Origin: an uncultured Rhodospirillaceae bacterium | Lineage (GTDB): Bacteria > Pseudomonadota > Alphaproteobacteria > GCA-2731375 | Reading direction: 5' to 3' | Length of the DNA stretch: 64,000 nt | NCBI GenBank assembly: GCA_964507245.1 | Contig: CAZDQC010000004.1 | Location: 1,771 to 65,770 of the forward strand | In this document: positions 3,630-47,167 of the stretch, in pieces | Layout: every line of letters starts with the position of its first letter | Position numbering within the stretch: the first letter of the stretch is position 1 | Program-made: the position numbers and the translations under genes | The notes under the pieces: model-generated | Told to the model about the DNA's origin: nothing | Seen by the model: the letters and a program-made list of their open reading frames with translations, nothing else | Databases searched by the model: none

Positions 3630-4682
3630 CTAAGAAAGGAACACACCTTTGCCCGTGGTTTGTTGATCGAACAGTTGGTAGGCCTCCTCAGCCTGGTCCA
3701 ACTTCCAGCGATGTGTAAATAGGGCGTCAACATCAATTTTGCGATCGGCGACGAAACGGGCGCACTCCGCTTGACCAATCGAAGAAAATGTCCAGGATGC
3801 AATTATTGTCATTTGTTTTCGGATCATGTCGCGGCTCACATCCAAGGTCACCCTACCGCCCTCGCCAACGTACCCGACGGTCCCCCATGTCCTTGTGCAT
3901 TGCACGGCCGCTAGACGAGCTGATTCCGCCCCTGAACAATCGAGGGCCTTATTTACACCAACGCCGTGTGTCAGATCCTTAATGGTTGCAACCAAGTCAT
4001 CAGCACCAGCATCCAGACAAACTTCAGCACCAAACGTTTTTGCTAACGCGAGGCGTTCCGCACTCACATCCAAAGCGATAACTCTGGAACCCATGGCAGC
4101 GGCTAACTGAACCGCCGACAGGCCCACTGGCCCCTGGCCAAAAACTGCTAGCGTATCTTCGCCACGCAATCCAATTCTGCGCAAGGCACCAAAGGCCGTG
4201 CCCGTACCGCACGAAATAGCGGCGCCAGTTTCGAACGACAATTCATCAGGTAGAGGGACCAGTGTTCGGACGGGTACTTTCATATACTTCGCGTGGGCGC
4301 CATTGCCCGTCGCTCCAAACACAGTGAACCCCTCACCGCACAACTGGGACCATCCGCTGCGGCAATCATTGCAAACACCGCACCCGGAATAATGGTGATC
4401 CATCACCCGTTGGCCAATTCGAGCCTCCGCCTCTGTGACGCCGGGACCAACGTCGGCAACGACGCCACAGGGTTCGTGTCCGGCTATGACCGGACCGCCA
4501 TCACCTCCCAAACCAAGCGCGCTCGTTCCACCGTCCTTGGCGGATGCACGATAAAACTTCAAATCACTGCCGCACATACCCGAGGCCTTAATTTCCAGAA
4601 CAACTTCGCCTGCTGCAGGAATCGGATCATCAAACTGCTGTATCTCAAGTTGTCGGTCACCCAAAAAAACCACACCCTTCAT
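3630..4682 (-). CDS. Zinc-dependent alcohol dehydrogenase (MDR superfamily)
   Basis: GHEPCGVV catalytic-Zn motif, a structural-Zn Cys cluster (CGVCNDCRSGWSQLC), and a GxGxxG Rossmann motif (VFGQGPVG). Confidence 0.85.
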   Translation of the reverse strand: MKGVVFLGDRQLEIQQFDDPIPAAGEVVLEIKASGMCGSDLKFYRASAKDGGTSALGLGGDGGPVIAGHEPCGVVADVGPGVTEAEARIGQRVMDHHYSGCGVCNDCRSGWSQLCGEGFTVFGATGNGAHAKYMKVPVRTLVPLPDELSFETGAAISCGTGTAFGALRRIGLRGEDTLAVFGQGPVGLSAVQLAAAMGSRVIALDVSAERLALAKTFGAEVCLDAGADDLVATIKDLTHGVGVNKALDCSGAESARLAAVQCTRTWGTVGYVGEGGRVTLDVSRDMIRKQMTIIASWTFSSIGQAECARFVADRKIDVDALFTHRWKLDQAEEAYQLFDQQTTGKGVFLS

Positions 4683-4847
4683 CCTGATACCTCCTGATGT
4701 TCGTAACGGCGAAAAGTTGTCGAAGAAATTTCGACCTTCTTTTACCCAATCGAAATCACGTCATCATCCGTAACGACAGTGTACGCATTCAATCCAGGAC
4801 ATGCCGCCTTAAATTCCAAAAAAAATTTGCAAAATATTTTCACAAGA

Positions 4848-6098
4848 TTATCTGTTGCTCCCCAGAAAACCAAATAAATGTCCTGCGATTTTACGGATTT
4901 GTATTTCCTCTGCGCCCTCCGTTATGCGGTAACGGCGATGATGTCGGTAAATATGTTCGAAGGGCTGATTTCTCGTGTACCCCTCCCCACCAAATACCTG
5001 CATGGCCCGGTCGGATGCTTCGCACACAAGTCGGTTTGCCCGGTAGTTTGCCATGGAAACTTGATCGGTAACTGCCATATGATTTTGTTGATCCAAATTC
5101 CATGCAGTTTTGTAGACGAGATTTCTCACCATTTCTGCTTCGGTATGTAACTCCGTTAGAGGAAACTGAATTGCTTGATTGGTAGATAGGGATTTTCCCC
5201 AGGTTACCCGTTCCTTGGCGTAGGCCACGGCCTCATCAATGCAATACTGTGCGGCACCTAGCGATGATGCGGCCTGCCGAATTCGGTTCTCGTGCAAGAA
5301 AGTCTGGGCAACGACCAGCCCATCGCCTTCCTCGCCAAGATAGGATTCCGTACTGTCAGGCATGCGAACATCATTTAATGCTATGCTGCCATGGTCAGTT
5401 GGCATATTGAAGGTCCAATCCATTTTCTCAATATTGAAACCCGAATTCGTGACCGGAACCAAAAAGGCGGTGATGCCCATCCCTTCTCCCGGCTCTCCAG
5501 ACGTCCGGGCGAACACCAAATCATGGGTGGCATCGTGAATTCCTGAATTAAAACGTTTATTACCGTTGATTACCCATTCGTCCCCCAATTTAACTGCCGT
5601 GGTCTCCATATAGGTGGCATCAGAGCCATGATTACGTTCCGTCAGGCCAAACCCGATTCTCCGACTACCCGTAATGAGCGCAGGCAGAAATTCCTCTTTT
5701 TGGGCATCCGTTCCAAACTGCCACATCATATGGACGAGGGGAAAATTACCCACAATCGAAGACTCGTTTTGCAGATCATTGTGTAGGCCAAGGCCCTTAT
5801 GTGCAAAATGTTCCCGGATCATCGCCATGGACAAATTTGACCCGTTCTGACCGCCAATTTCTTTCGGAAGAGCAAATCGTAAATGCCCCTCGGCGTCAGC
5901 GCGTTTTTTCATCTCCTGGAGCAGGGCTTCCCATTCTTTGGTCGGCGTACCACCATTTTCCCAATCGGTACGCGCATGTTCCCGGCGATGGTCAAAGAAT
6001 TGTAAATTTTTCCGCTCGAGGGGTTTTATTTCACGTTCTATAAATTCATCCAGTTCCTTAATTTTATCGAGTATCACTTTGGGAACATTGAAGTCCAT
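4848..6098 (-). CDS. Acyl-CoA dehydrogenase family protein
   Basis: 416 aa with ACAD N-terminal, middle and C-terminal domain signatures (GFGLTERNHGSDA, C-terminal YEGxxEIQ-like region). Confidence 0.85.
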   Translation of the reverse strand: MDFNVPKVILDKIKELDEFIEREIKPLERKNLQFFDHRREHARTDWENGGTPTKEWEALLQEMKKRADAEGHLRFALPKEIGGQNGSNLSMAMIREHFAHKGLGLHNDLQNESSIVGNFPLVHMMWQFGTDAQKEEFLPALITGSRRIGFGLTERNHGSDATYMETTAVKLGDEWVINGNKRFNSGIHDATHDLVFARTSGEPGEGMGITAFLVPVTNSGFNIEKMDWTFNMPTDHGSIALNDVRMPDSTESYLGEEGDGLVVAQTFLHENRIRQAASSLGAAQYCIDEAVAYAKERVTWGKSLSTNQAIQFPLTELHTEAEMVRNLVYKTAWNLDQQNHMAVTDQVSMANYRANRLVCEASDRAMQVFGGEGYTRNQPFEHIYRHHRRYRITEGAEEIQIRKIAGHLFGFLGSNR

Positions 6099-34431: not shown

Positions 34432-35040
34432 TTAATCCTCTTCTGCCACATAGTAGAGCACGAATTGTTGTGCCAAGCTCTCTATTTGCCTAGCGGGCCG
34501 GGAGAGATGTGAAATTGCAATATGGACAGAGGGATAACCTTCAGCCTGCTTATTAAACTTCCCCATAGCGGGCGATATCAATGGCAAAAAGCCGACCGAA
34601 TTGCGTACATAAGTGCGTGCCTTTTCATCCAACTGACCCGGGTCTACGGCGACCATTAAAACCCGCCGCATTAAGGTTGCTTTTGCAGCACCCATACCGA
34701 TGACTGCCGACCAAGGGATCAAACCCAGGGGCGGGCGCTGACTAAAAATTCCATTGCTGTCAAAAGTAATCACTGGTTTTTTATCAAAAGCCATTTCCAA
34801 TAGTAAGAATGAGACAAACAAACAAATAAGAATGGCCAAAATGTTAACCCAACCTAAATTTGCAAGAACGAATTCTCCGGAACCTTCTAAACCGTCTGTC
34901 TGCAGGGTCATGGCAACCCCTAGCAGGCAGGGAATAATTAAAACTCCGATCTTTAACTTTGATGGGTAAAAATTTACCGGATCAGGCGGCGTGCCCACGT
35001 TCCGCCTATTCGTAAGGTGGTCCTGTCCTTCGACTGACAT
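34432..35040 (-). CDS. Hypothetical membrane protein (two N-terminal TM helices plus a soluble domain; possibly bacterial PH-like)
   Basis: ORF 34432-35070. The ATG at 35040 (MSVEGQDH...) is the likely start. I recognise no catalytic motif. Confidence 0.45.
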   Translation of the reverse strand: MSVEGQDHLTNRRNVGTPPDPVNFYPSKLKIGVLIIPCLLGVAMTLQTDGLEGSGEFVLANLGWVNILAILICLFVSFLLLEMAFDKKPVITFDSNGIFSQRPPLGLIPWSAVIGMGAAKATLMRRVLMVAVDPGQLDEKARTYVRNSVGFLPLISPAMGKFNKQAEGYPSVHIAISHLSRPARQIESLAQQFVLYYVAEED

Positions 35041-35121
35041 TTCGCCGCATTCCCCCAAAACTCTGACCAATTATAGCCATTCCGGCCGATTGGGGCTACT
35101 CTAGCCAGAGGAGGATTTAGG

Positions 35122-35892
35122 ATGGAAATTCATCAACAAGTTGCCATTGTCACCGGCGCAGCTAAAGGTATTGGCGCTAGCATTAGCCGAGCCCTTGCCG
35201 CGGCTGGCGCACGGGTGGTTTGTGCTGATATTGACGGGGACGCCGCAAATAATATCGCCAAAGAGCTGGGCGGGGACTGCATGCCCCTGACTGTGGACGT
35301 CGGCGACGTTGACTCTATCGAAACCATGCTGGATCAGACGATGGAGCAATTTGGGCAATTGAATACCATCGTTAACAATGCGGGTGTAACCCGCAGCGCC
35401 TACATAATGGATTTGACCGAAGCTGATTGGGACCGCATCCACCAGGTCAATGCGCGAGGTGTATTTTTCTGCCTGCAAGGAGCCGCACGACGCATGATCG
35501 AAGGTGATGGTGGCCGCATAATCAATATCGCGTCCATTGCCGGCCGTGGCTATGCAGGTACATCGAACGCAGCTTATGCCGCTTCCAAGGGTGCGGTAAT
35601 TTCGCTAACCAAAACCGCGGCACAACAATTGGCCAAGCACGACATTACCGTCAATGCCATCTGCCCCGGCGTCACAAGAACGGAGTTGCTGGAGAAAATT
35701 TTCACGACCATTGAAGAAAGCCAGGGCATCAGCAAAGCGGAAGCAGAAGCCCGCGCTGCCCGGCCCATACCTCTGCAGCGCATTAATGAGCCTGAAGATG
35801 TTGCCGCCATGGCAATCTTCCTTGCTTCACCCGGCGCTCGCAATATCACTGGCCAAGCGTACAATGTCGATGGTGGTTTAATTACAAGCTAA
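35122..35892 (+). CDS. SDR family oxidoreductase (3-oxoacyl-ACP reductase-like)
   Basis: 256 aa with a TGAAKGIG cofactor motif, NNAG, and a YxxxK catalytic dyad (YAASK). Confidence 0.85.
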   Translation: MEIHQQVAIVTGAAKGIGASISRALAAAGARVVCADIDGDAANNIAKELGGDCMPLTVDVGDVDSIETMLDQTMEQFGQLNTIVNNAGVTRSAYIMDLTEADWDRIHQVNARGVFFCLQGAARRMIEGDGGRIINIASIAGRGYAGTSNAAYAASKGAVISLTKTAAQQLAKHDITVNAICPGVTRTELLEKIFTTIEESQGISKAEAEARAARPIPLQRINEPEDVAAMAIFLASPGARNITGQAYNVDGGLITS

Positions 35893-36142
35893 GAACCATG
35901 CTCATAAGATCGGTTAATAACCTCTAAAATGCAATTTTCAGAAAATAGATTTATGCAGGACATCACGTGCAAATAGAATTTGGTTTAATAGAATCTGCCT
36001 AACCCGATTTAGCTGAACGCGAAACTTTCACATGCCCACCCGCCCACCAAATTTTGAGATAAAACCAACGGCCAAAGCCGTAATAATTTAGCGATTATAC
36101 CAGTTCCTTGCGGGTCTGGCTCAAATTGCGTAACAGGGTGAC

Positions 36143-37657
36143 GTGCACGCATTATACGGGCGTAAAGTTATGCATCAAAAAGAGCAGAGCGTGGAACAAG
36201 ACGTGGTTAAGTCTTTGGAGTGGGTCCGTCGGGCCGTCGAACAAGGCTATCAGTCGGGCCAACACTTGCTCCAAAATTTTCGAAACGATAATTATTATTC
36301 GTCAACTGCTCGGCATGAAAAAACACTCAATTTCGATCCTTCCTCCCTGGGAGGGATCAAGGCAGTGGTCGAGGACCTATTGCAACACATTAAGGACAGT
36401 ATGCTTAGTGACGGCCAGCTTCAGTATGAACGCTTAAGGACGGACCATTCTGATGGCACAATTCGGATAACAATTCCGGATTTTGTTTTTGAACTGCCCA
36501 GTTTAGGACATTTACAACTGGGTGACGTGGTCATTCAGGTGCGCCGGGAAAATGCCCGTTATGACAGCGTATGCCTAGACCTGCCCAACGAATGTAAATT
36601 CTATACACCCAACGGCACTCAAGGTCGCATTTCTGCCACTAAACCATTCGCCAAGGTTCGCTGGGACAACCATTTGCAGATTAGTTCCGAGTTCGAATTT
36701 TGCCTCCCAAGTTTGGTATTCTCGCTCGATAAAGGCGGTGAGATCGGGCGCATTGGTGAAGTTTTTGGAAAATCAAATGTGTTAGAAAATCAGGGCCGAT
36801 GGTCGGGACCGTTGCATTTGTCACTGAGTGACGTGACCTTGGGCAAAGGTGACCGATTAAAGATAAAACTGGGGAGCGTCAGATTTGTTCTAAATATTCA
36901 GGACCTAGACTTTCCATCCTATGCCGCCATGGCAAGGGCTGGTCCGACGAAGAACCAGGAATTTACAAGCGGCTTAGATCCTTGGGGATATTTTCTGACA
37001 CTGGCCGGGGGTGTGCGGTTGCAGACCGACATTACGGAACTGAGTGTTCAGGACCCTTTTCAACACCCCTTCCAATTGGCCAGAGCTCAATTTGATATCG
37101 ACCTGATAACATCCGATCGGCAAATCCTAGAAGTCACCTTGAATACTCACTACAAGGGGCTTAGTCGAACAGGCGAAGCGAAGGCGGAAGAGAAATTTCC
37201 CTGTCAGATGAAGCTCAACTTAAGTCTGGACAATTTGCCCATTGGTGCAGCTGTTGACGGAGTGACGGCGGTCGTGGAATTAGTTTTGTTGGGCAGGAAG
37301 AACACTGACCCAAATGTGCTAGAGCAACTACGACAGGATTTTAGCGCTGCCGGAACAGCCCTGCGATTAAAGAGTGTCAAAGTAACGGCTCGCAAATTTC
37401 ACTTTGATCTGACGTTACAAGTTTTCGCGAAAGCGGCTGCCAATTCCGGGTTCATCGGCGACGGAGTGTTGCGCATTCACGGACTGAAAAAAATAATGAC
37501 GAAACTTGGTCTCCAGAACTTGCCGCCAGTCGCCGAATTAATCAAGAATGAGAAATCAAACGTCGGTAGTGAATGCACGTCATTTGATATAGCTGTGCGC
37601 CCCGATGGAATGTTGACGGTAAATAGCTGTCCGGTGTTATCCTTGGCGTCCATATAA
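36143..37657 (+). CDS. Hypothetical protein, about 495-504 aa, with no recognised catalytic motif (beta-rich, weakly repetitive; DUF-type)
   Basis: Long uninterrupted ORF on a locally AT-rich stretch. The ATG at 36170 (MHQKEQ...) is the more likely start, although the ORF opens at a GTG at 36143. No signal peptide or TM helix is seen at the N-terminus. Confidence 0.55.
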   Translation: MHALYGRKVMHQKEQSVEQDVVKSLEWVRRAVEQGYQSGQHLLQNFRNDNYYSSTARHEKTLNFDPSSLGGIKAVVEDLLQHIKDSMLSDGQLQYERLRTDHSDGTIRITIPDFVFELPSLGHLQLGDVVIQVRRENARYDSVCLDLPNECKFYTPNGTQGRISATKPFAKVRWDNHLQISSEFEFCLPSLVFSLDKGGEIGRIGEVFGKSNVLENQGRWSGPLHLSLSDVTLGKGDRLKIKLGSVRFVLNIQDLDFPSYAAMARAGPTKNQEFTSGLDPWGYFLTLAGGVRLQTDITELSVQDPFQHPFQLARAQFDIDLITSDRQILEVTLNTHYKGLSRTGEAKAEEKFPCQMKLNLSLDNLPIGAAVDGVTAVVELVLLGRKNTDPNVLEQLRQDFSAAGTALRLKSVKVTARKFHFDLTLQVFAKAAANSGFIGDGVLRIHGLKKIMTKLGLQNLPPVAELIKNEKSNVGSECTSFDIAVRPDGMLTVNSCPVLSLASI

Positions 37658-37746: not shown

Positions 37747-39018
37747 ATGGAACACCTCACCCGCGATATAGCCACGCTATTGGGTCTCGCCGCCATTATT
37801 GGCTACATCAATCATCGGTTCCTGCATCTGCCACGAACCATTGGGCTGGTACTGATTGCCATGGCTGCCTCGCTGATCGCCTTGGGGATTGACGCTTTGA
37901 TACCAGGTTGGGGGGTCGGACCTGGATTTAGGGCAGTCCTTGTCGACATCGATTTCAGCGATACCTTGATGCAGGGAATGTTGGGTTTTCTATTATTCGC
38001 CGGCGCCTTGCATGTAGATTTGGGGCACTTGGCCAAGCGCGGATGGGCCATAGCGGCCTTAGCTACAGGCGGATTGTTGGTATCCACCGGAATAGTTGGC
38101 GTTGGTATTTGGTTCGTATTCAACCTAACTGGATTAAATATATCCCTGATCTATTGCCTGCTATTTGGCGCTTTGATCTCGCCGACTGACCCCGTGGCAG
38201 TATTAGGCATTCTGAAGACCGTTAAGGTGCCCGCTAGCTTGGAAGCTAAGATTGCCGGCGAGAGCCTATTCAATGACGGCGTGGGTGTCGTCATCTTTGT
38301 AATCCTATTGGCGATGGCGACCTCTGGGGGCAATGCCCTCACCTTGGGTGACATTACATTTTTGTTTTTGCGAGAGGCCTTGGGTGGAGCGGCCTTGGGA
38401 TTGGCGGCAGGAGCCGTAGCATTTTGGGCTTTACGATCGATTGATGAATACAATCTAGAGGTCATCATTACATTGGCCCTTGTGACGGTCACTTATGAAG
38501 TAGCCCATATGCTGCATACCTCCGGGCCCATCGCTGTGGTCGTGTCGGGTCTTTTGATTGGGAATCACGGAACGCGACTAGCAATGAGCGAGACTACGCG
38601 GGCGCATTTGACAAATTTCTGGACGTTGATCGATGAGGTCCTGAATGCGGTATTGTTCCTACTAATCGGTCTGGAAGTCATCATCATCTCAACCACACCT
38701 GGTTTGATGTGGGTTTCCTTTATCGCCATTCCTCTGGTCTTAGGGGCCCGGTTCGTAGCAGTCGCCGTTCCCATTGGCGTGTTTGGATTATTCCGTGATT
38801 TCACCAAAGGAGCTATTCCGGTTTTGACGTGGGGTGGATTACGGGGCGGCATTTCTGTTGCTCTGGCATTATCCTTGCCTAACGGTGATGAGAAAGACGC
38901 AATTGTCACCGTCTGTTACACGGTGGTGGTGTTTTCCATCTTGGTGCAAGGATTGACGATCGGCAAATTAGTGCAGCGGGTCGTCCCTACACAGAGTGAT
39001 GTAACCGATCATCATTGA
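37747..39018 (+). CDS. Na+/H+ (cation:proton) antiporter, CPA1/NhaP-type
   Basis: 423 aa polytopic protein whose N-terminus (LLGLAAIIGYINHRFLHLPRTIGLVLIAMAASL) is typical of NhaP/CPA1 exchangers. Confidence 0.8.
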   Translation: MEHLTRDIATLLGLAAIIGYINHRFLHLPRTIGLVLIAMAASLIALGIDALIPGWGVGPGFRAVLVDIDFSDTLMQGMLGFLLFAGALHVDLGHLAKRGWAIAALATGGLLVSTGIVGVGIWFVFNLTGLNISLIYCLLFGALISPTDPVAVLGILKTVKVPASLEAKIAGESLFNDGVGVVIFVILLAMATSGGNALTLGDITFLFLREALGGAALGLAAGAVAFWALRSIDEYNLEVIITLALVTVTYEVAHMLHTSGPIAVVVSGLLIGNHGTRLAMSETTRAHLTNFWTLIDEVLNAVLFLLIGLEVIIISTTPGLMWVSFIAIPLVLGARFVAVAVPIGVFGLFRDFTKGAIPVLTWGGLRGGISVALALSLPNGDEKDAIVTVCYTVVVFSILVQGLTIGKLVQRVVPTQSDVTDHH

Positions 39019-39031
39019 ACTGGATTAGTAG

Positions 39032-39045
39032 TCCAACCGGTTGGA
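39032..39045. repeat. 14-bp perfect palindrome TCCAACCGGTTGGA immediately downstream of the antiporter gene
   Basis: Read directly from the sequence. A TGGATTA direct repeat flanks it. Confidence 0.3.
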
Positions 39046-39319
39046 TTAACAGACCCAAAAAGTCGGACTGCAGACAGCGGCCTGAACACCGCGCTCATGT
39101 CTGTGGCGGCATGGGCCGTTTTGTGGTTCCATTTAGACAGACAATCAACGGTTTATTAGTCGCCGGCTTTAATAGTGACTTCCTTGCCTCTGTCTTGCAG
39201 AGCTCGGTGGACGTGATCATATAGTGTTAGAAAGTCGGCGGAGAATTCTCATTTCCTTGTCCTATCGACACACAGGACATACCCTGCCACCAAATAGGAT
39301 CGTGAGCTCGGAGCGGCAT

Positions 39320-40321
39320 ATGGACATTCGACAAGGTTTCATTGAGAGCATCGGCAACACGCCGCTGATCCGACTAACAAAAGCCTCAGACCTGACCCAA
39401 TGCGAGATTTATGGCAAAGCTGAATTCCTTAACCCAGGTGGTTCCGTCAAGGACCGAGCCGCCTTGGCAATTGTCAAGGCGGCCGAGACCCGAGGCGATC
39501 TAAGACCAGGTGGAATAATTGTCGAAGGTACGGCTGGCAACACCGGCATAGGACTCGCCTTGGTTGCAAACGCGCGTGGCTACAAAACAATTATCGTAAT
39601 TCCTGAAACGCAAACCCAGGAAAAAAAAGACATGCTGACGATGTGCGGCGCAGACCTGCGCCAAGTTCCAGCAGTACCTTACAGAGACGACAACAACTAC
39701 ATAAAATTTTCCGGCCGGCTCGCTAAGGAGATCGCAACAAATCATTCCCAGGGCGCTATCTGGGCTAATCAATTTGACAATGTGGATAACAGACAGGGCC
39801 ATTATGAAACAACGGGCCCTGAAATTTGGCAGCAAACAGAAGGCAAGGTAGACGGATTTATCTGTGCCGTGGGATCAGGCGGTTCATTGGCCGGTATCGC
39901 AAAATTTTTGCGGGAGCAAAATCCCTCTGTGACCATTGGCCTAGCAGACCCGCCAGGTGCCGCTCTGTACCATTATTACGCGCATGGTGAATTGAAGGCC
40001 GAAGGATCATCCATCACAGAAGGTATCGGACAAGGCCGGATCACAGCCAACTTGGAAGGGCTGAACGTAGATAAACCCTATTTTATTCCGGACACAGAAT
40101 CCCTGCAAGTTGCCTTCGACTTGATCATCGAAGAAGGATTAGTGCTGGGTTCATCCTCCGGCGTCAACGTTGCCGGCGCCATAAGACTCGGACAAGAATT
40201 AGGCCCAGGACATACCATTGTGACCTTGCTTTGCGATGGTGCACAGCGTTATCAAAGCAAGATGTTCAATCTACCCTTCCTAAGGGAGCTAGGTCTGCCA
40301 ACACCAAGTTGGATGGACTAA
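39320..40321 (+). CDS. Cysteine synthase / cystathionine beta-synthase family PLP enzyme (CysK/CysM-like)
   Basis: ORF 39224-40321. The ATG at 39320 (MDIRQGFIESIGNTPLIRL...) is the likely start. The PLP-lysine region is GSVKDR and a glycine loop GTAGNTGIG is present. Confidence 0.8.
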   Translation: MDIRQGFIESIGNTPLIRLTKASDLTQCEIYGKAEFLNPGGSVKDRAALAIVKAAETRGDLRPGGIIVEGTAGNTGIGLALVANARGYKTIIVIPETQTQEKKDMLTMCGADLRQVPAVPYRDDNNYIKFSGRLAKEIATNHSQGAIWANQFDNVDNRQGHYETTGPEIWQQTEGKVDGFICAVGSGGSLAGIAKFLREQNPSVTIGLADPPGAALYHYYAHGELKAEGSSITEGIGQGRITANLEGLNVDKPYFIPDTESLQVAFDLIIEEGLVLGSSSGVNVAGAIRLGQELGPGHTIVTLLCDGAQRYQSKMFNLPFLRELGLPTPSWMD

Positions 40322-42927: not shown

Positions 42928-43656
42928 TTAATGACTGAGTATTTGGCTTAAAAATAATTTTGTACGGTCACTCTCTGGATTATTAAAAAACTCTTCGGGT
43001 TCATTCTCTTCAACAATTTCACCTGCATCCATAAAAATAACCCTGTTCGCCACTTGACGCGCGAAACCCATTTCATGAGTAACAACGAGCATGGTCATTC
43101 CTGATTCAGCAAGTTCAATCATCACATCAAGCACTTCCTTGATCATTTCTGGATCTAGGGCTGATGTCACTTCGTCAAAAAGCATGACCTTAGGTTGCAT
43201 GCATAATGAACGAGCAATAGCAACACGTTGCTGTTGCCCGCCCGAGAGTTGTCCAGGAAATTTCTGAGCCTGCTCGGGAATTTTAACGCGCTCCAATAAT
43301 TCCATAGCCAATTCCTCAGCATCACTCCGAGGCATTTTTCGGACCCAAACCGGACCTAAAGTACAATTTTCTAAAACAGAAAGATGGGGAAATAAATTAA
43401 AACTCTGAAAAACCATCCCGACATCGCTTCTTATTTCGGCGATATTTTTTATATTAGAGGTTAGTTCAATTCCATCGACATTTATTGATCCTTCCTGATG
43501 CTCCTCCAGCCGGTTGATACAACGTATCAGGGTCGACTTTCCGGATCCGGACGGACCACAAATTACAATTTTTTCACCACCATCTACGCTTAAATTAATG
43601 TCTTTCAAGACATGGAATGAACCAAACCATTTATGCATATTTTCGATCTTAATCAT
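42928..43656 (-). CDS. aapP: Amino acid ABC transporter ATP-binding protein (polar amino acid family, AapP/GlnQ-like)
   Basis: 242 aa with Walker [10 protein letters not shown], signature LSGGQQQRV, and Walker [12 protein letters not shown]. Confidence 0.85.
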
Positions 43657-43713
43657 CGCCTCTTTCCTAATTATTCGGAATTCTTACTGTTTGATGAAAG
43701 CATTAGCGATATT

Positions 43714-44793
43714 TTAATCATGATCTGTATTCAAACGTTTTTCTAAAAATATCGAATATCGCGACATTGAAAAACAGCAAATAAAGAAAAATATTGCTAT
43801 AAATATGTATACTTCAATATGCAAACCGCCCCATTTAGTATCAGCTAACGACGCCCTTCCAATCCCTAATGGATCTAATAACCCGATAATGATAACCAAT
43901 GTCGTATCTTTGTATAAACCTATGAAACTATTGACAATTCCGGGTATTGAAATCTTTAAAACCTGCGGCATGACAACTAATCGATGGGTCTTCCAGTAAC
44001 TTAACCCAATTGCTTGGCTCGCTTCATATTGTCCAACTGGGATGCCCGCGAGTCCACCCCGAATTACTTCAGCCAAATAAGCAGCTGAGAAAAAAGTCAC
44101 CATAATCAAAACACGTAGCAGAAGATCGAATGAGGTACCCGGTGGAAGAAAATAATTCAACATTGTGGAAGCGATAAATAATATAACGATCAGTGGAACG
44201 CCGCGGAGAACTTCAATAAAAATCACGCAGAGAATTTTAACGGCTGGTAAGTTTGAAGTACGGCCCAACGCAAGGAATATGCCAATTGGTAAGGAAAAAG
44301 CGACCCCTGTAATACCAACAATTATAGTAAGCATTATTCCGCCGAATAGGTCCGTGGTAACTGGTTCTAATCCCAAACCACCTAACAAAACCCAACCCGC
44401 TAAGAATGGGAATAACATGCTGTATAGGAGCAAGTATTTTCGGTATGGCAATTTTTCTACAAAAATCGGTATGAAAGCCAAAATTAATAGTATGAATGTT
44501 AGATTTACTCTCCAATGAAGATGCGTTGGATAGAAGCCGTAAATAAACATATTAATTCTTTTGGTAATAAAGGCCCAGCATGCCCCCTCCCCTGGCGTGG
44601 CCATTTGCTCCCAACACGAATTGCGGCTATCCCCCAACCAGACAGAATTGATTAAAGCCCATTCGAAGATCGGAGGAACAACGACAATAACGATGTAGAT
44701 CGATAATATGGTTAGCACAGCATCGAACGGCGAAGAAAATAAATTCTGCCGCAACCACCTTACTACTTTATTTAGCGCATTTACTTGGGGCAT
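43714..44793 (-). CDS. aapM: Amino acid ABC transporter permease (AapM-like)
   Basis: 359 aa membrane protein with an EAA-like loop (GLSYWKTHRLVVMPQ). It is strongly AT-rich. Confidence 0.8.
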   Translation of the reverse strand: MPQVNALNKVVRWLRQNLFSSPFDAVLTILSIYIVIVVVPPIFEWALINSVWLGDSRNSCWEQMATPGEGACWAFITKRINMFIYGFYPTHLHWRVNLTFILLILAFIPIFVEKLPYRKYLLLYSMLFPFLAGWVLLGGLGLEPVTTDLFGGIMLTIIVGITGVAFSLPIGIFLALGRTSNLPAVKILCVIFIEVLRGVPLIVILFIASTMLNYFLPPGTSFDLLLRVLIMVTFFSAAYLAEVIRGGLAGIPVGQYEASQAIGLSYWKTHRLVVMPQVLKISIPGIVNSFIGLYKDTTLVIIIGLLDPLGIGRASLADTKWGGLHIEVYIFIAIFFFICCFSMSRYSIFLEKRLNTDHD

Positions 44794-44845
44794 ATTTATT
44801 CAGTTCAGCAGCACCTTACCCAAATAACCAGATCTTTCATTTCCA

Positions 44846-46027
44846 TTACCTATCCTTTATTCCTATGCTTCTATTATAAATATTCATAAGCAAAGATATG
44901 AAAAGGGAACACAATAGGTAAACTAACAGAACAATTATCATTGTTTCCATTTCTTTACCTGTTTGCATTAACGAAATCCCGCCGATCGTAGCCATTATAT
45001 CCATATAACCAATTGCGAGAGCCAAAGATGAATTTTTTGTTAGGTTCAAATATTGACTAGCAAGAGGCGGTATAATAATTCGCAATGCCTGCGGTATCGT
45101 AACAAGCTGAAGGGTGCGTTTAGGTGTTAAGCCTACGGCATACGCAGCCTCTGTTTGGCCCTTGTGTACAGCGAGTATTCCCCCTCTGACAATTTCCGCG
45201 ATAAACGCCGAGGTGTAATAGGACAATGCAAACCAAAGGGCTATATACTCAGGCCTTACAGCCAGCCCGCCCCGAAAATTAAAGCCGCGCAGGGATGGTA
45301 TTTCCAGCCCTACTGGAGAATCAGATGCAAAAAAAGTTATCCCGGTAATTCCAAAAATGAAGATCAATCCGATGGAAAATATGGGATAAATTTTTCCTGT
45401 TTTGGCTTGCACTTGTTTAGCCCAAACCCTGTAGATTAAAAATAGGATGATAGAAACTATAATCGCCACGATGACGTAATTGAAACCATCTTGAAAAATG
45501 GGCCTTGGGATAAAAAATCCTCGGTTTGTTAGGTGTACTACATCCCCGATTGAAAGAGCTTTTTTGGGGACCGGCAAGCTATGAATAATGATACTATGAA
45601 TAAATAAAATATGGAGAAGAACGGGCACATTACGGGTAAATTCAACAAATATATAAGATAATTTATTAACAAGAAAATTTGATGACAGCCGGCAGATGCC
45701 AAGGATAAATCCAAGTATAGTTGCCAATATGATTCCAGTTATAGCGACTAATAATGTATTTAATAATCCTACTAAGGCTGCCCTAAAATGTGTGTCGGTT
45801 GGAGAATATTCGATAAAGGGCTGAAAGGTGATATCGTAGCCTGCCGGGTAAGCAAGAAAATCGAAACTGAACTCCTTACCCACCGAAGCTAGATTTACCG
45901 TAATATTCTGTATAATCAAAAAAACAAGCAACAGCACTAATATCAAGGTCACCGTCTGCAAAATAAGCGATCGGGTCTTTTGATCATTTAGCAGATTGAT
46001 GAGACTTATATTCGTAGTGCGTTCCAT
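44846..46027 (-). CDS. aapQ: Amino acid ABC transporter permease (AapQ-like)
   Basis: 393 aa membrane protein with an EAA-like loop (GLTPKRTLQLVTIPQALR). It is strongly AT-rich. Confidence 0.8.
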   Translation of the reverse strand: MERTTNISLINLLNDQKTRSLILQTVTLILVLLLVFLIIQNITVNLASVGKEFSFDFLAYPAGYDITFQPFIEYSPTDTHFRAALVGLLNTLLVAITGIILATILGFILGICRLSSNFLVNKLSYIFVEFTRNVPVLLHILFIHSIIIHSLPVPKKALSIGDVVHLTNRGFFIPRPIFQDGFNYVIVAIIVSIILFLIYRVWAKQVQAKTGKIYPIFSIGLIFIFGITGITFFASDSPVGLEIPSLRGFNFRGGLAVRPEYIALWFALSYYTSAFIAEIVRGGILAVHKGQTEAAYAVGLTPKRTLQLVTIPQALRIIIPPLASQYLNLTKNSSLALAIGYMDIMATIGGISLMQTGKEMETMIIVLLVYLLCSLFISLLMNIYNRSIGIKDR

Positions 46028-46150: not shown

Positions 46151-47167
46151 TCAACGGAACGGCGGTGAATATTGAAGGCCGCCCTTAGTCCAAAGAGCAT
46201 TCAGTTCACGGTTCAGGCCAATGGCAGTATTTGGGCCAATATTGCGCTCAAAAATTTCACCATAATTGCCTACAGCCTTGATGATATTCTTGGCCCAATC
46301 CTTGTTCAAACCAAGCTCCTCACCTTGACTGCCTTCCATACCGACAAACCGCTTAATTTCTGGGTTCTTCGTTTGATGACCGATATGGTCGACGTTTGCT
46401 TGTGTAATGCCGAGTTCCTCAGCGGTGATTGTCGCGTACAAAACCCAACGAACGATATCTGCCCACTGGTCATCTCCTTGCCGTACGGCTGGGCCGAGCG
46501 GCTCCTTAGAGATGATTTCTGGCAAAATCGTATGGTTCTTGGGATCCTTGAACGTGGAACGGGTCGCTGCAAGGCCTGATGCATCAGTGGTATACACATC
46601 GCCTCGACCAGAAAGATAGCATTGGCGCGCTTCTTCGTTAGTTTCGATCGCTACAGCCTCATATTTCATGCCGTTTGACCGAAAGTAGTCCGCCAAGTTT
46701 AATTCCGTCGTGGTGCCAGTCTGGATACATACAGAAGCACCATCAAGTTCCTTGGCACTCTTAATACCCATACTATTCTTTACCATGAAGCCTTGGCCGT
46801 CATAGTAATTCACACCGAGAAAAGTCAGCTTAACACCAACGTCCCGCGAGAAGGTAATGGTCGTATTTCTCCAAAGGACATCGCCTTCGCCAGAGTTCAG
46901 TTTTGTAAAGCGTGTCTTTCCTGTACTTGTAACAGCCTTGATCTTGTTTGCGTCGCCAAGTACTGCCGCCGCTGTTGCACGACAAAAGTCGACGTCAAAA
47001 CCTTTCCACTTTCCGCTGTCATCAGGATAAGCAAAGCCAGCGATACCGGTGCTGACGACACAGCGCAGGACACCAGCCTTCTTTACATCCTCGAGCGTCC
47101 CAGCTAGGGCACCCGTAGACACCACTGCGGCCGTGGCCGCAGCTGCTATAAATCCAAGATATTTCAT
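46151..47167 (-). CDS. aapJ: General L-amino acid ABC transporter substrate-binding protein (AapJ-like)
   Basis: 338 aa with an N-terminal signal peptide (MKYLGFIAAAATAAVVSTGALA) and the periplasmic binding protein fold of the polar amino acid family. Its GC content is normal, unlike the permease genes. Confidence 0.85.
   Translation of the reverse strand: MKYLGFIAAAATAAVVSTGALAGTLEDVKKAGVLRCVVSTGIAGFAYPDDSGKWKGFDVDFCRATAAAVLGDANKIKAVTSTGKTRFTKLNSGEGDVLWRNTTITFSRDVGVKLTFLGVNYYDGQGFMVKNSMGIKSAKELDGASVCIQTGTTTELNLADYFRSNGMKYEAVAIETNEEARQCYLSGRGDVYTTDASGLAATRSTFKDPKNHTILPEIISKEPLGPAVRQGDDQWADIVRWVLYATITAEELGITQANVDHIGHQTKNPEIKRFVGMEGSQGEELGLNKDWAKNIIKAVGNYGEIFERNIGPNTAIGLNRELNALWTKGGLQYSPPFR

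Follow-up and report, generated by a model that had tools for sequence, protein, structure and literature searches.

A 5'-truncated, probably cytoplasmic derivative of a DUF2125-type envelope protein in an uncultured Rhodospirillaceae bacterium

The stretch analyzed here (hereafter, the window) comprises 64,000 nucleotides (nt) of contig CAZDQC010000004.1 from an uncultured Rhodospirillaceae bacterium (GenBank assembly GCA_964507245.1), and the gene in question is an uninterrupted open reading frame (ORF) spanning exactly 36143..37657 on the plus strand, with 504 amino acids (aa) counted from its GTG. With a probability of about 70%, we read this ORF as a cytoplasm-stranded, 5'-truncated derivative of a DUF2125-type envelope protein, with selection on the gene relaxed but persistent. 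A first-pass annotation of the same DNA had described a long clean ORF of about 500 aa placed between an SDR gene and the gene of an NhaP antiporter, and this much is confirmed: the frame is open over its whole length, the upstream neighbor (35122..35892, plus strand) matches PF13561 (E-value 1e-61), and the downstream one (37747..39018, plus strand), located 89 nt after the ORF, encodes an NhaP-type Na+/H+ antiporter (PF00999, E-value 2.7e-52).

According to this interpretation, a Sec-type signal peptide would have preceded a TPR-like helix and a single Sel1 repeat in the ancestral protein, and a linker would have joined these to a β-rich DUF2125-type domain of ~430 aa. In the window lineage, the DNA between the SDR gene and the family gene (~1.2 kb in the related locus L020, several genes in L005) is missing together with approximately the first 28 codons, the next ~34 codons have decayed to non-coding DNA, and translation would proceed from an ATG inside the Sel1 repeat. 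Deprived of its export signal, the protein would be kept in the cytoplasm, where the ancestral constraints are partly lifted and its cysteine content has drifted from zero to the proteome average.

Positional orthology and loss of the 5' end

Loci of related organisms were retrieved using NhaP as a probe, with one genome per species. The five genomes closest by NhaP (80-82% identical, tblastn), all marine Alphaproteobacteria or "Rhodospirillaceae" metagenome-assembled genomes, carry a full-length copy of the family gene in the corresponding slot (5/5), and seven full-length copies are found 8-96 nt upstream of nhaP (L005, L008, L010-L013, and L020), after which come the genes of PALP, AlaX, and rhodanese; among 75 more distant NhaP loci, the family gene occupies the slot in none (0/75). 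In L020, the order is virtually that of the window, being GMC oxidoreductase, a hypothetical membrane protein (hyp212), SDR, a 1.2-kb interval, the full-length gene, NhaP, NUDIX, PALP, AlaX, and rhodanese. Also, the locus of a 45% identical relative (L001) has GMC oxidoreductase, hyp212, and SDR genes upstream, as in the window. The SDR gene remains syntenic with the family gene in L001, L003, and L004, and also in L005 and L020, where other genes have been inserted between the two. Two more remote homologs, P0029 (36% identity) and P0031 (33%), are encoded directly upstream of a Na+/H+ exchanger gene, followed by NUDIX, PALP, AlaX, and rhodanese genes, which is the downstream order of the window except for NUDIX. 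This arrangement shows that the ORF is a positional ortholog, that is, an ancestral gene of this marine alphaproteobacterium and not an insertion.

The first-pass annotation had instead seen an orphan on an AT-rich islet, which would imply horizontal acquisition. The GC content of the ORF (0.481) is indeed slightly under that of the flanking genes, the protein has no Pfam match, and its close homologs fall into just five clusters. However, this GC content is compatible with the gene mean of 0.513 ± 0.035 (z = -0.9; seventh lowest of 50 genes), the deviation at third codon positions (GC3) is even smaller (z = -0.2), and the spacer between the SDR gene and the ORF (GC 0.42) is typical of a window in which intergenic values range from 0.31 to 0.55. 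Moreover, Rfam and tRNA scans detected no RNA or tRNA gene in the window, PADLOC and PHROGs gave no defense or phage match for the ORF, and positional orthologs are present in seven related genomes. The islet is not borne out, and the horizontal origin, refuted by synteny, retains hardly any credence.

Regarding co-occurrence with the flanking genes, which the first-pass annotation had proposed to look at, the seven full-length copies named above lie upstream of nhaP and the SDR gene accompanies the family gene in L020 as well, but the genes of the distant members P0034 and P0037 do not adjoin an antiporter. A family-wide functional link to NhaP was rejected for this reason, and the adjacency would thus reflect the synteny of a lineage rather than a conserved functional coupling.

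The truncation is seen in the comparison of N-termini. Full-length relatives are built from a hydrophobic signal peptide (present in most of them), a TPR-like helix plus one complete Sel1 repeat, a linker rich in Lys, Pro, and Ala, and a β-rich core of ~430 aa, and most of them align from their own residues ~50-60 onto residue 3 of the window protein. The N-terminus of the window protein is not hydrophobic, with a KD12 value of 0.36 for its first 40 aa versus 1.8-2.8 in the relatives. Codons 1-28 of the full-length gene, which specify the signal peptide, have no counterpart left in the window, and no frame upstream of the ORF encodes a hydrophobic segment.

Downstream of this point, by contrast with the missing codons, the ancestral sequence can still be read in the DNA. 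Positions 36068-36278 of the window match positions 5342-5555 of L020 at the nucleotide level, from approximately codon 29 of the full-length gene (E-value 4e-10), and the portion 36068..36169 (plus strand), identified by tblastn and blastn, is a non-coding relic of approximately ancestral codons 29-62, which specified the TPR-like helix and then the Sel1 repeat up to its midpoint. When the N-termini of the relatives are used as tblastn queries, the relic is matched in two pieces, 'FSDYTSSLRVW' in another frame and 'IA*QGDVHALYGRKV' running on into 'MHQ', which correspond to 'YSLGDYAGALxIWxxLAQQGDARAQYSMAVLYLKGRGVPKD' or 'DYAGALxVW..LAxQGDARAQYS' of the orthologs. In the 90% identical relative L002, the same stretch is in frame ('...RPKP*QFSDYANILWVWSRIAQQGDVHALYGLKF' followed by 'MHQKEQ...') and collinear with the orthologs, whereas the window version has suffered both a frameshift and an in-frame TAA (36131-36133). 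This codon is polymorphic, being TAA in the window and in L092, a further copy from a metagenome, and CAA, hence open, in L002-L004, which indicates that the relic evolves as non-coding DNA. We consider it shown that the window lineage lost approximately codons 1-28, signal peptide included, and that the new start lies inside the Sel1 repeat. Some of the DNA taken for spacer consists of the decayed 5' coding region of the gene itself, a point that the first-pass annotation had missed.

The remainder of the spacer (35893..36067), which marks the deletion junction, has no recognizable homology to the DNA of the relatives, and a blastn comparison with the 1.2-kb interval between the SDR gene and the family gene of L020 gave no match. 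This interval measures 277-278 nt in four close loci, in which the spacer is 88-95% identical, approximately the neutral rate. In L001, 84 nt separate the SDR gene from the called start, and in L020 and L005 the distance grows to 1.2 and 4.8 kb, respectively. Exactly at the onset of homology to the full-length gene (36068-36081), there is an inverted repeat of 5 bp, rich in GC (ACGGC CAAA GCCGT); the scanner calls it a terminator-like site of the minus strand, followed on that strand by TGGTTTTATC.

Because the stretch upstream of it evolves as non-coding DNA, the ATG at 36170 was taken as the working start. It corresponds to residue 10 (M10) of the mechanical ORF, and the homologs from the three closest non-identical clusters (P0002-P0004) also begin there. 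Translation from this ATG is likely on these comparative grounds, and the most likely coding sequence is 36170..37657 (plus strand; 495 codons and the stop). Its product is a member of the DUF2125 superfamily that has been shortened at the N-terminus and carries no signal peptide. The nine-codon extension back to the GTG (36143..36169, plus strand) is probably untranslated and would belong to the relic; homology to helix A of the ancestral Sel1 repeat runs on through it, with the close homologs called from the ATG.

The new N-terminus (36170..36277, plus strand) is a residual half Sel1 repeat, of which helix B, VVKSLEWVRRAVEQGYQSGQ, is left, helix A surviving just in the non-coding relic. The Sel1 profile PF08238 scores only 13.7 bits on aa 5-36, against a cut-off of 30.7, and is matched over positions 7-36 only, and the Sel1-repeat protein 4bwr_A of the Protein Data Bank (PDB) is matched over aa 19-50 (E-value 8.9e-6). 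In the orthologs, the repeat is complete and scores 30-42 bits (best, 41.8).

Family membership and fold

Homologs were sought by a word-indexed search of 5.8 billion proteins and by an exhaustive HMMER search of 1.8 billion representatives. The former gave only five close clusters, with identities of 100, 90, 72, 70, and 45%, all from marine metagenomes, including TARA mesopelagic samples. The exhaustive search added ~20 full-length relatives of 21-36% identity, mostly of 560-590 aa, among a total of 354 matches, the majority of which are Sel1-only, with hundreds of unrelated Sel1 proteins matching just aa ~9-44. Further word-indexed searches, with the profile of alignment A2 and with the family member P0099, added few sequences, a profile search of genome contigs with alignment A1 gave no match, and a metagenome scan yielded one further locus only. 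The description of the protein as an orphan holds at close range, with five clusters at identities of at least 45%, but not beyond it, where the remote full-length relatives are found. A few of these consist of the signal peptide and the core only, and the Sel1 module is absent from the family members P0063, P0075, and P0099.

Two homologs deviate from this architecture. P0022, a member of the 90% cluster encoded on a 5,460-nt ENA contig, is a product of 201 aa in which an N-terminus of 33 residues (MKISKKTIDEIFSTAIIEEVISEFVALKKTGAN), presumably resembling DnaG primase, runs into the last ~170 residues of a family protein; the junction is a shared 'YKGL', and either an assembly chimera or a real rearrangement would account for it. 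P0030, with 458 aa and 41% identity to the window protein, begins with a short segment that contains a Glu and resembles a signal peptide only doubtfully; it has no Sel1 module and two cysteines, and may represent an independent N-terminal remodeling in the family.

The window protein has no family match in Pfam or NCBIfam, including PF09898 (DUF2125) at E-values up to 1. In agreement with the first-pass annotation, no Rossmann, P-loop, or metal-binding family is matched in either database, and no confident match to a characterized enzyme family was found. The affiliation comes from its relatives. P0099 passes the DUF2125 threshold (35.6 bits against a gathering cut-off of 24.2), with its aa 190-465 covering profile positions 40-311 of 319, and among 25 family members, it is the only one above the threshold, with three others below it. 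The window protein matches P0099 over aa 76-495 in phmmer (E-value 7.8e-8). Moreover, an hhalign comparison between the alignment of the window protein with its orthologs (A4) and that of the P0099 subgroup (A5, in which four of the seven members match PF09898) reaches a probability of 99.8% and an E-value of 8.1e-28 over 419 columns, corresponding to the entire core. These profile comparisons show that the window protein belongs, by homology, to a divergent, longer, Sel1-fused subfamily (~570 aa) of the DUF2125 superfamily.

The DUF945/YdgA profile PF06097 gives no match with the window protein and is matched below threshold by five of the 25 family members, three of them among the seven of the P0099 subgroup, in differing parts of its 460-position model (best score, 19.1 bits against a gathering cut-off of 26.8; best E-value, 6.8e-5). 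A DUF748 match was observed in one family member (E-value 0.026), and NCBIfam gave for the orthologs just sub-threshold matches in the Sel1/TPR region (MerG and AlgK).

An AlphaFold2 model of the core domain (aa 66-504; 36338..37654, plus strand) was obtained from an alignment of 25 sequences, an earlier one from five sequences having been set aside with a pLDDT of 45. The model (pLDDT 85, pTM 0.81) predicts an N-terminal helix followed by a long up-and-down antiparallel β-sheet, formed by a series of β-hairpins with few helices between them; the region corresponding to PF09898 is the C-terminal two-thirds of this core (~36818-37645, plus strand). With 51% strand and 20% helix in the core model, the β-rich character noticed in the first pass is sustained, and the weak L-S-L-x-D/N repetition is real, if minor: the pattern [LIVF][ST][LIVF]x[DN] occurs four times versus 0.6 expected from shuffles (P = 0.002). 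The statement that the protein lacks a transmembrane signature stands for the N-terminus, where there is no hydrophobic segment, but not for an internal conserved helix, LPIGAAVDGVTAVVELVLLG (aa 365-383; 37235..37291, plus strand), which exceeds the classical transmembrane threshold. This helix, helical also in the model, corresponds to the Kyte-Doolittle maximum over 19 residues (1.89, and 1.87 at the equivalent site of P0029), contains Asp and Glu, and includes an 'LLG' motif that is invariant across the ortholog group.

Foldseek searches against the PDB and BFVD returned no significant structural relative. The low-scoring fold matches include LptA, LptD, and TamA, and a Chorein-N protein ranks second in BFVD (E-value 0.011); these matches would reflect the generic likeness of up-and-down antiparallel sheets. 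The first-pass guess of a DUF2125- or AsmA-like β-repeat protein is thereby supported in its first half, at the superfamily level, while an AsmA-like nature is only hinted at by the DUF748 match, with no significant fold match beside it.

Compared with DUF2125 proteins, the family shares homology over the whole core, an alphaproteobacterial distribution, and the signal peptides of the relatives. It differs in a core that extends ~110 residues further toward the N-terminus than the 319-position model, in the TPR/Sel1 module added by the orthologs, and, for the window copy, in the lack of a signal peptide. For DUF945/YdgA, the sub-threshold matches suggest a common superfamily of large β-rich envelope proteins, YdgA being also uncharacterized. 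A likeness to bridge-like and AsmA-like lipid-transfer proteins (AsmA, TamB, DUF748, Chorein-N, and the LptD/LptA β-jellyroll) would lie in a long, curved, up-and-down antiparallel β-sheet within an envelope protein, whereas the window copy lacks an N-terminal membrane anchor. Finally, with Sel1-repeat proteins such as C5321 of Escherichia coli CFT073 (PDB 4bwr), the window protein shares helix B of one repeat at its N-terminus; those proteins are repeat arrays, whereas in this family a single repeat forms a small N-terminal appendage to a β-rich protein.

DUF2125 has been called "unstudied" in a paper that reports that HHpred weakly links it to Chorein-N and to DUF2993, in the latter case to the N-terminus (Levine 2019; PMC6791001), and the catalog of released proteins of Asaia bogorensis includes a DUF2125 protein with a signal-peptide score of 1 (PMC12502724). 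Since the function of DUF2125 is unstudied, membership in this family says nothing on mechanism. A lipid- or hydrophobic-ligand-binding role of the ancestral form, drawn from the weak published and structural hints, is only a lead.

Selection, cysteine content, and compartment

The persistence of the reading frame was evaluated in the 70-100% identity group, represented by five independent assemblies (the window, L002-L004, and L092), and the ORF body is intact in all of them, so that the interruption in close relatives which the first-pass annotation had considered is not seen. The 495-codon body shows zero indels in 1,485 nt, whereas the 279-nt spacer shows 0-5 indel events per pair. The gene is also open in L001, across a synonymous divergence (dS) of ~1.2. 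In a neutral simulation, the frame stays open with a probability of 0.085 when the per-lineage divergence is smallest, and of 0 once it reaches 0.165. Moreover, the proportion of nonsynonymous differences (pN) was compared with that of synonymous ones (pS) in four pairs that include the window, and it is significantly lower in all four, with Fisher p values between 0.013 and 6e-18. For a dead pseudogene, whose remnant would be open by chance, speak the loss of the 5' end with the signal peptide, the frameshift and stop of the upstream relic, and an elevated ratio of nonsynonymous to synonymous divergence (dN/dS). However, the adjoining 100-nt relic did gain disruptions in the same time in which the body remained clean, and an identity of 45-90% excludes very recent copies of one sequence; together with the open frame, its neutral expectation, and the pN deficit, this leaves the pseudogene effectively refuted. 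By these sequence measures, the gene is shown to be alive, with purifying selection persisting on the frame and on much of the sequence, which implies that it is still translated. Pseudogene-like behavior is confined to the 5' relic (36068-36169).

At the same time, constraint is weakened or shifted. The dN/dS is 0.35-0.55, significantly under 1, in the truncated clade (0.71 in the closest pair) and 0.19-0.36 among the exported orthologs, with values of 0.03-0.13 for NhaP, 0.03 for the GMC oxidoreductase, 0.09 for hyp212, and 0.06-0.21 for SDR (closest pair, 0.31). Between the window and L001, the family protein is 45% identical and its neighbors are 93% (GMC oxidoreductase), 91% (SDR), and 81% (hyp212) identical. 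The ratio of dN between the family gene and a neighbor is ~8-10 in the truncated clade, ~3.3-4.3 among exported orthologs, and 4.5 when the window is compared with the latter. Moreover, at 103 columns invariant in six exported orthologs, the truncated sequences keep 52-71% of the residues, thus replacing 29-48%, whereas held-out close exported orthologs keep 89-97%. This shows that constraint has been relaxed or shifted, the truncated clade evolving, relative to its neighbors, roughly twice as fast as the exported orthologs.

The cysteine content follows the same division. The seven orthologs that bear a signal peptide are free of cysteine. The 20 distant relatives are nearly so once their signal peptides are discounted, and the mature exported relatives together contain four in 13,757 residues. 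The five proteins of the truncated clade contain 2-6 each, for a total of 23 in 2,470 residues, at 12 alignment columns; one cysteine is conserved across the clade, and the gained ones mostly replace Arg, Thr, Gly, or Asp of the exported orthologs. In the window protein, cysteine reaches 1.2% versus 1.3% in the other proteins of the window. Periplasmic proteins avoid unpaired cysteines because of Dsb-catalyzed oxidation, and the pattern is therefore what would be expected from an exported ancestor and a descendant freed of that selection. The ancestral exported form was probably an envelope protein, and its envelope function would have been lost or altered in the truncated clade.

Alternatively, the protein could reach the envelope without a Sec or Tat signal, by piggy-back or non-classical secretion, and keep its ancestral DUF2125-type function. 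No part of the core domain is missing, its model from the family alignment is a confident one, purifying selection persists, and the Sel1 module is dispensable, as it is lacking in three family members. Nonetheless, all other full-length members examined have a hydrophobic N-terminus, except P0030 with its doubtful signal; 2-6 mostly non-conserved cysteines per protein would be unusual for a periplasmic protein of a cysteine-excluding family; and a substantial fraction of the invariant residues has been replaced, as described above. Taken together, the data make this route improbable, and retention of the truncated protein in the cytoplasm is preferred.

Several points weigh against this preference and the scenario around it. 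The cytoplasmic location, although the most likely, is read from the missing signal and the gain of cysteines only, and the cysteine contrast is essentially that of one clade versus the rest, so that its Fisher p-value exaggerates how independent the observations are. The gain could also result from relaxed selection together with AT-biased mutation, many of the changes being Arg to Cys, with the compartment unchanged. Scans for Shine-Dalgarno sequences and promoters gave no promoter or strong ribosome-binding site at the new start, weak sites being common in this genome, and translation from the ATG at 36170 would be deduced from the comparative pattern. A single origin of the truncation would follow from the clustering of the sequences. 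The dN/dS values come from a simple Nei-Gojobori count, with dS near saturation in the deepest pair, and the whole family is fast-evolving even when exported, the additional acceleration being just ~1.5-2.5-fold. Also, a Tajima relative-rate test with L008 as outgroup was first highly significant, but the NhaP control was equally asymmetric, which makes the outgroup invalid, and the test was discarded.

As for its present role, two options are the most likely: the β-sheet domain might act in a reduced or altered capacity on the cytoplasmic side, or selection might act for continued translation of the transcript carrying nhaP. In the second case, the ORF would be kept open chiefly to spare co-transcribed nhaP from Rho-dependent polarity, the protein would be largely functionless, and selection would act just against toxic misfolding. 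The family gene and nhaP are co-directional in all relatives and in the window, at the short distances given above, and a scan limited to sigma-70 consensus sites found no plus-strand promoter or terminator consensus from the SDR gene through the ORF to nhaP. This short, signal-free gap makes polarity a serious rival. It would be consistent as well with the strong weakening of constraint at ancestrally invariant sites and with codons 31-120, where pN equals or exceeds pS in close pairs. However, a scan of sigma-70 sites cannot show that nhaP lacks its own promoter, and a dN/dS of 0.35-0.55 means that about half to two-thirds of the amino acid changes are removed, which is above the expectation for a translated spacer. 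Moreover, the family motifs (RWD, GxWSGP, LLG, and RPDGxLTVN) are kept, and substitutions within the truncated clade still avoid, if mildly, the invariant columns (43% versus 59%, p = 0.005). Because a mere translated spacer would be expected to show a higher dN/dS, the gene is most likely maintained by a role of the protein itself, residual or new, and polarity as the chief cause is considered unlikely.

A further step would be to regard the ORF as a natural compartment switch, in which a periplasmic β-sheet protein was retained after losing its signal peptide and took on a new cytoplasmic function, perhaps tied to the co-transcribed NhaP antiporter or, through the conserved hydrophobic helix, to the inner face of the membrane. 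This is a tentative idea, and we would sooner bet against it than for it. If it were true, the cysteine gains would be a molecular record of the relocation, and the clade would offer matched pairs of exported and non-exported orthologs for work on DUF2125 ligands.

With or without such a switch, an apparent orphan is removed, since the protein is placed in a Sel1-fused DUF2125 subfamily that current Pfam and NCBIfam models miss. The aftermath of a signal-peptide loss is documented by a readable relic, relaxed constraint, and cysteines confined to the signal-less clade; the cysteine contrast itself provides indirect evidence that DUF2125-type proteins work in the oxidizing periplasm. For annotation, the choice of start and the 'hypothetical protein' labels hide a truncation that synteny alone reveals. 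In evolutionary terms the case is a tidy one, and the annotation is corrected, but no new molecular system is revealed.

Neighboring genes and lineage-specific changes

A comparison of the ORF with L003 (913-2400) reveals a mosaic, with pS of 0.03-0.11 in codons 1-120 and of 0.25-0.46 in codons 120-480. The former values are similar to those of the SDR gene (dS 0.13) and of the spacer (11% divergence). Such a pattern points to recombination, with a breakpoint around codon 100-120; the contigs of L003 and L004 end at the ORF.

The interval between the SDR gene and the family gene varies in content among the relatives. In L020, it includes an ORF of 217 aa (4536-5189, plus strand) which matches just the end of HisKA and HATPase_c and looks like a truncated sensor histidine kinase, and in L005 and L008, genes with EAL and AMP-binding domains are found there. 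These different contents mark the DNA preceding the family gene as a hot spot of rearrangement in this lineage.

Further upstream, between the GMC oxidoreductase and SDR genes, lies the gene of hyp212 (34432-35070, minus strand), a hypothetical membrane protein of 212 aa, more likely ~202 aa. It has no Pfam family, and its sole match, with STM3941 of NCBIfam, stays below threshold (29.4 bits; cut-off, 40). Its synteny is conserved in L001 (81% identity) and in L005 and L020 (72-77%).

Downstream of nhaP, all seven related loci have a NUDIX gene (~200 aa) before the cysteine-synthase-like PALP gene, whereas the window has only a gap of 205 nt (39019-39223), with PALP starting at 39224. A NUDIX relic was sought in 38900-39400 and in the whole window, and none was detectable. 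This absence is the second deletion specific to the lineage. As the relatives have 333-337 aa, the PALP ORF (365 aa from its mechanical GTG) probably begins ~30 codons further downstream than called.

The window has a GC content of 0.51, which is 5-15 points under the syntenic loci of its closest species-level relatives (0.56-0.65; L005, L008, L011-L013, and L020). The lower GC and the two deletions jointly point to a window lineage under AT drift or genome reduction, and the low GC is compatible with a lineage losing DNA. The real AT-rich block of the window is at 42928-46027 (minus strand), with a GC of 0.39-0.41 and a GC3 of 0.36-0.40, and consists of three ABC-transporter genes, one for an ATPase and two for permeases; it is followed by the gene of a family-3 solute-binding protein (46151-47167). 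Genes with ABC_tran and BPD_transp_1 domains are found at the corresponding place in the relatives.

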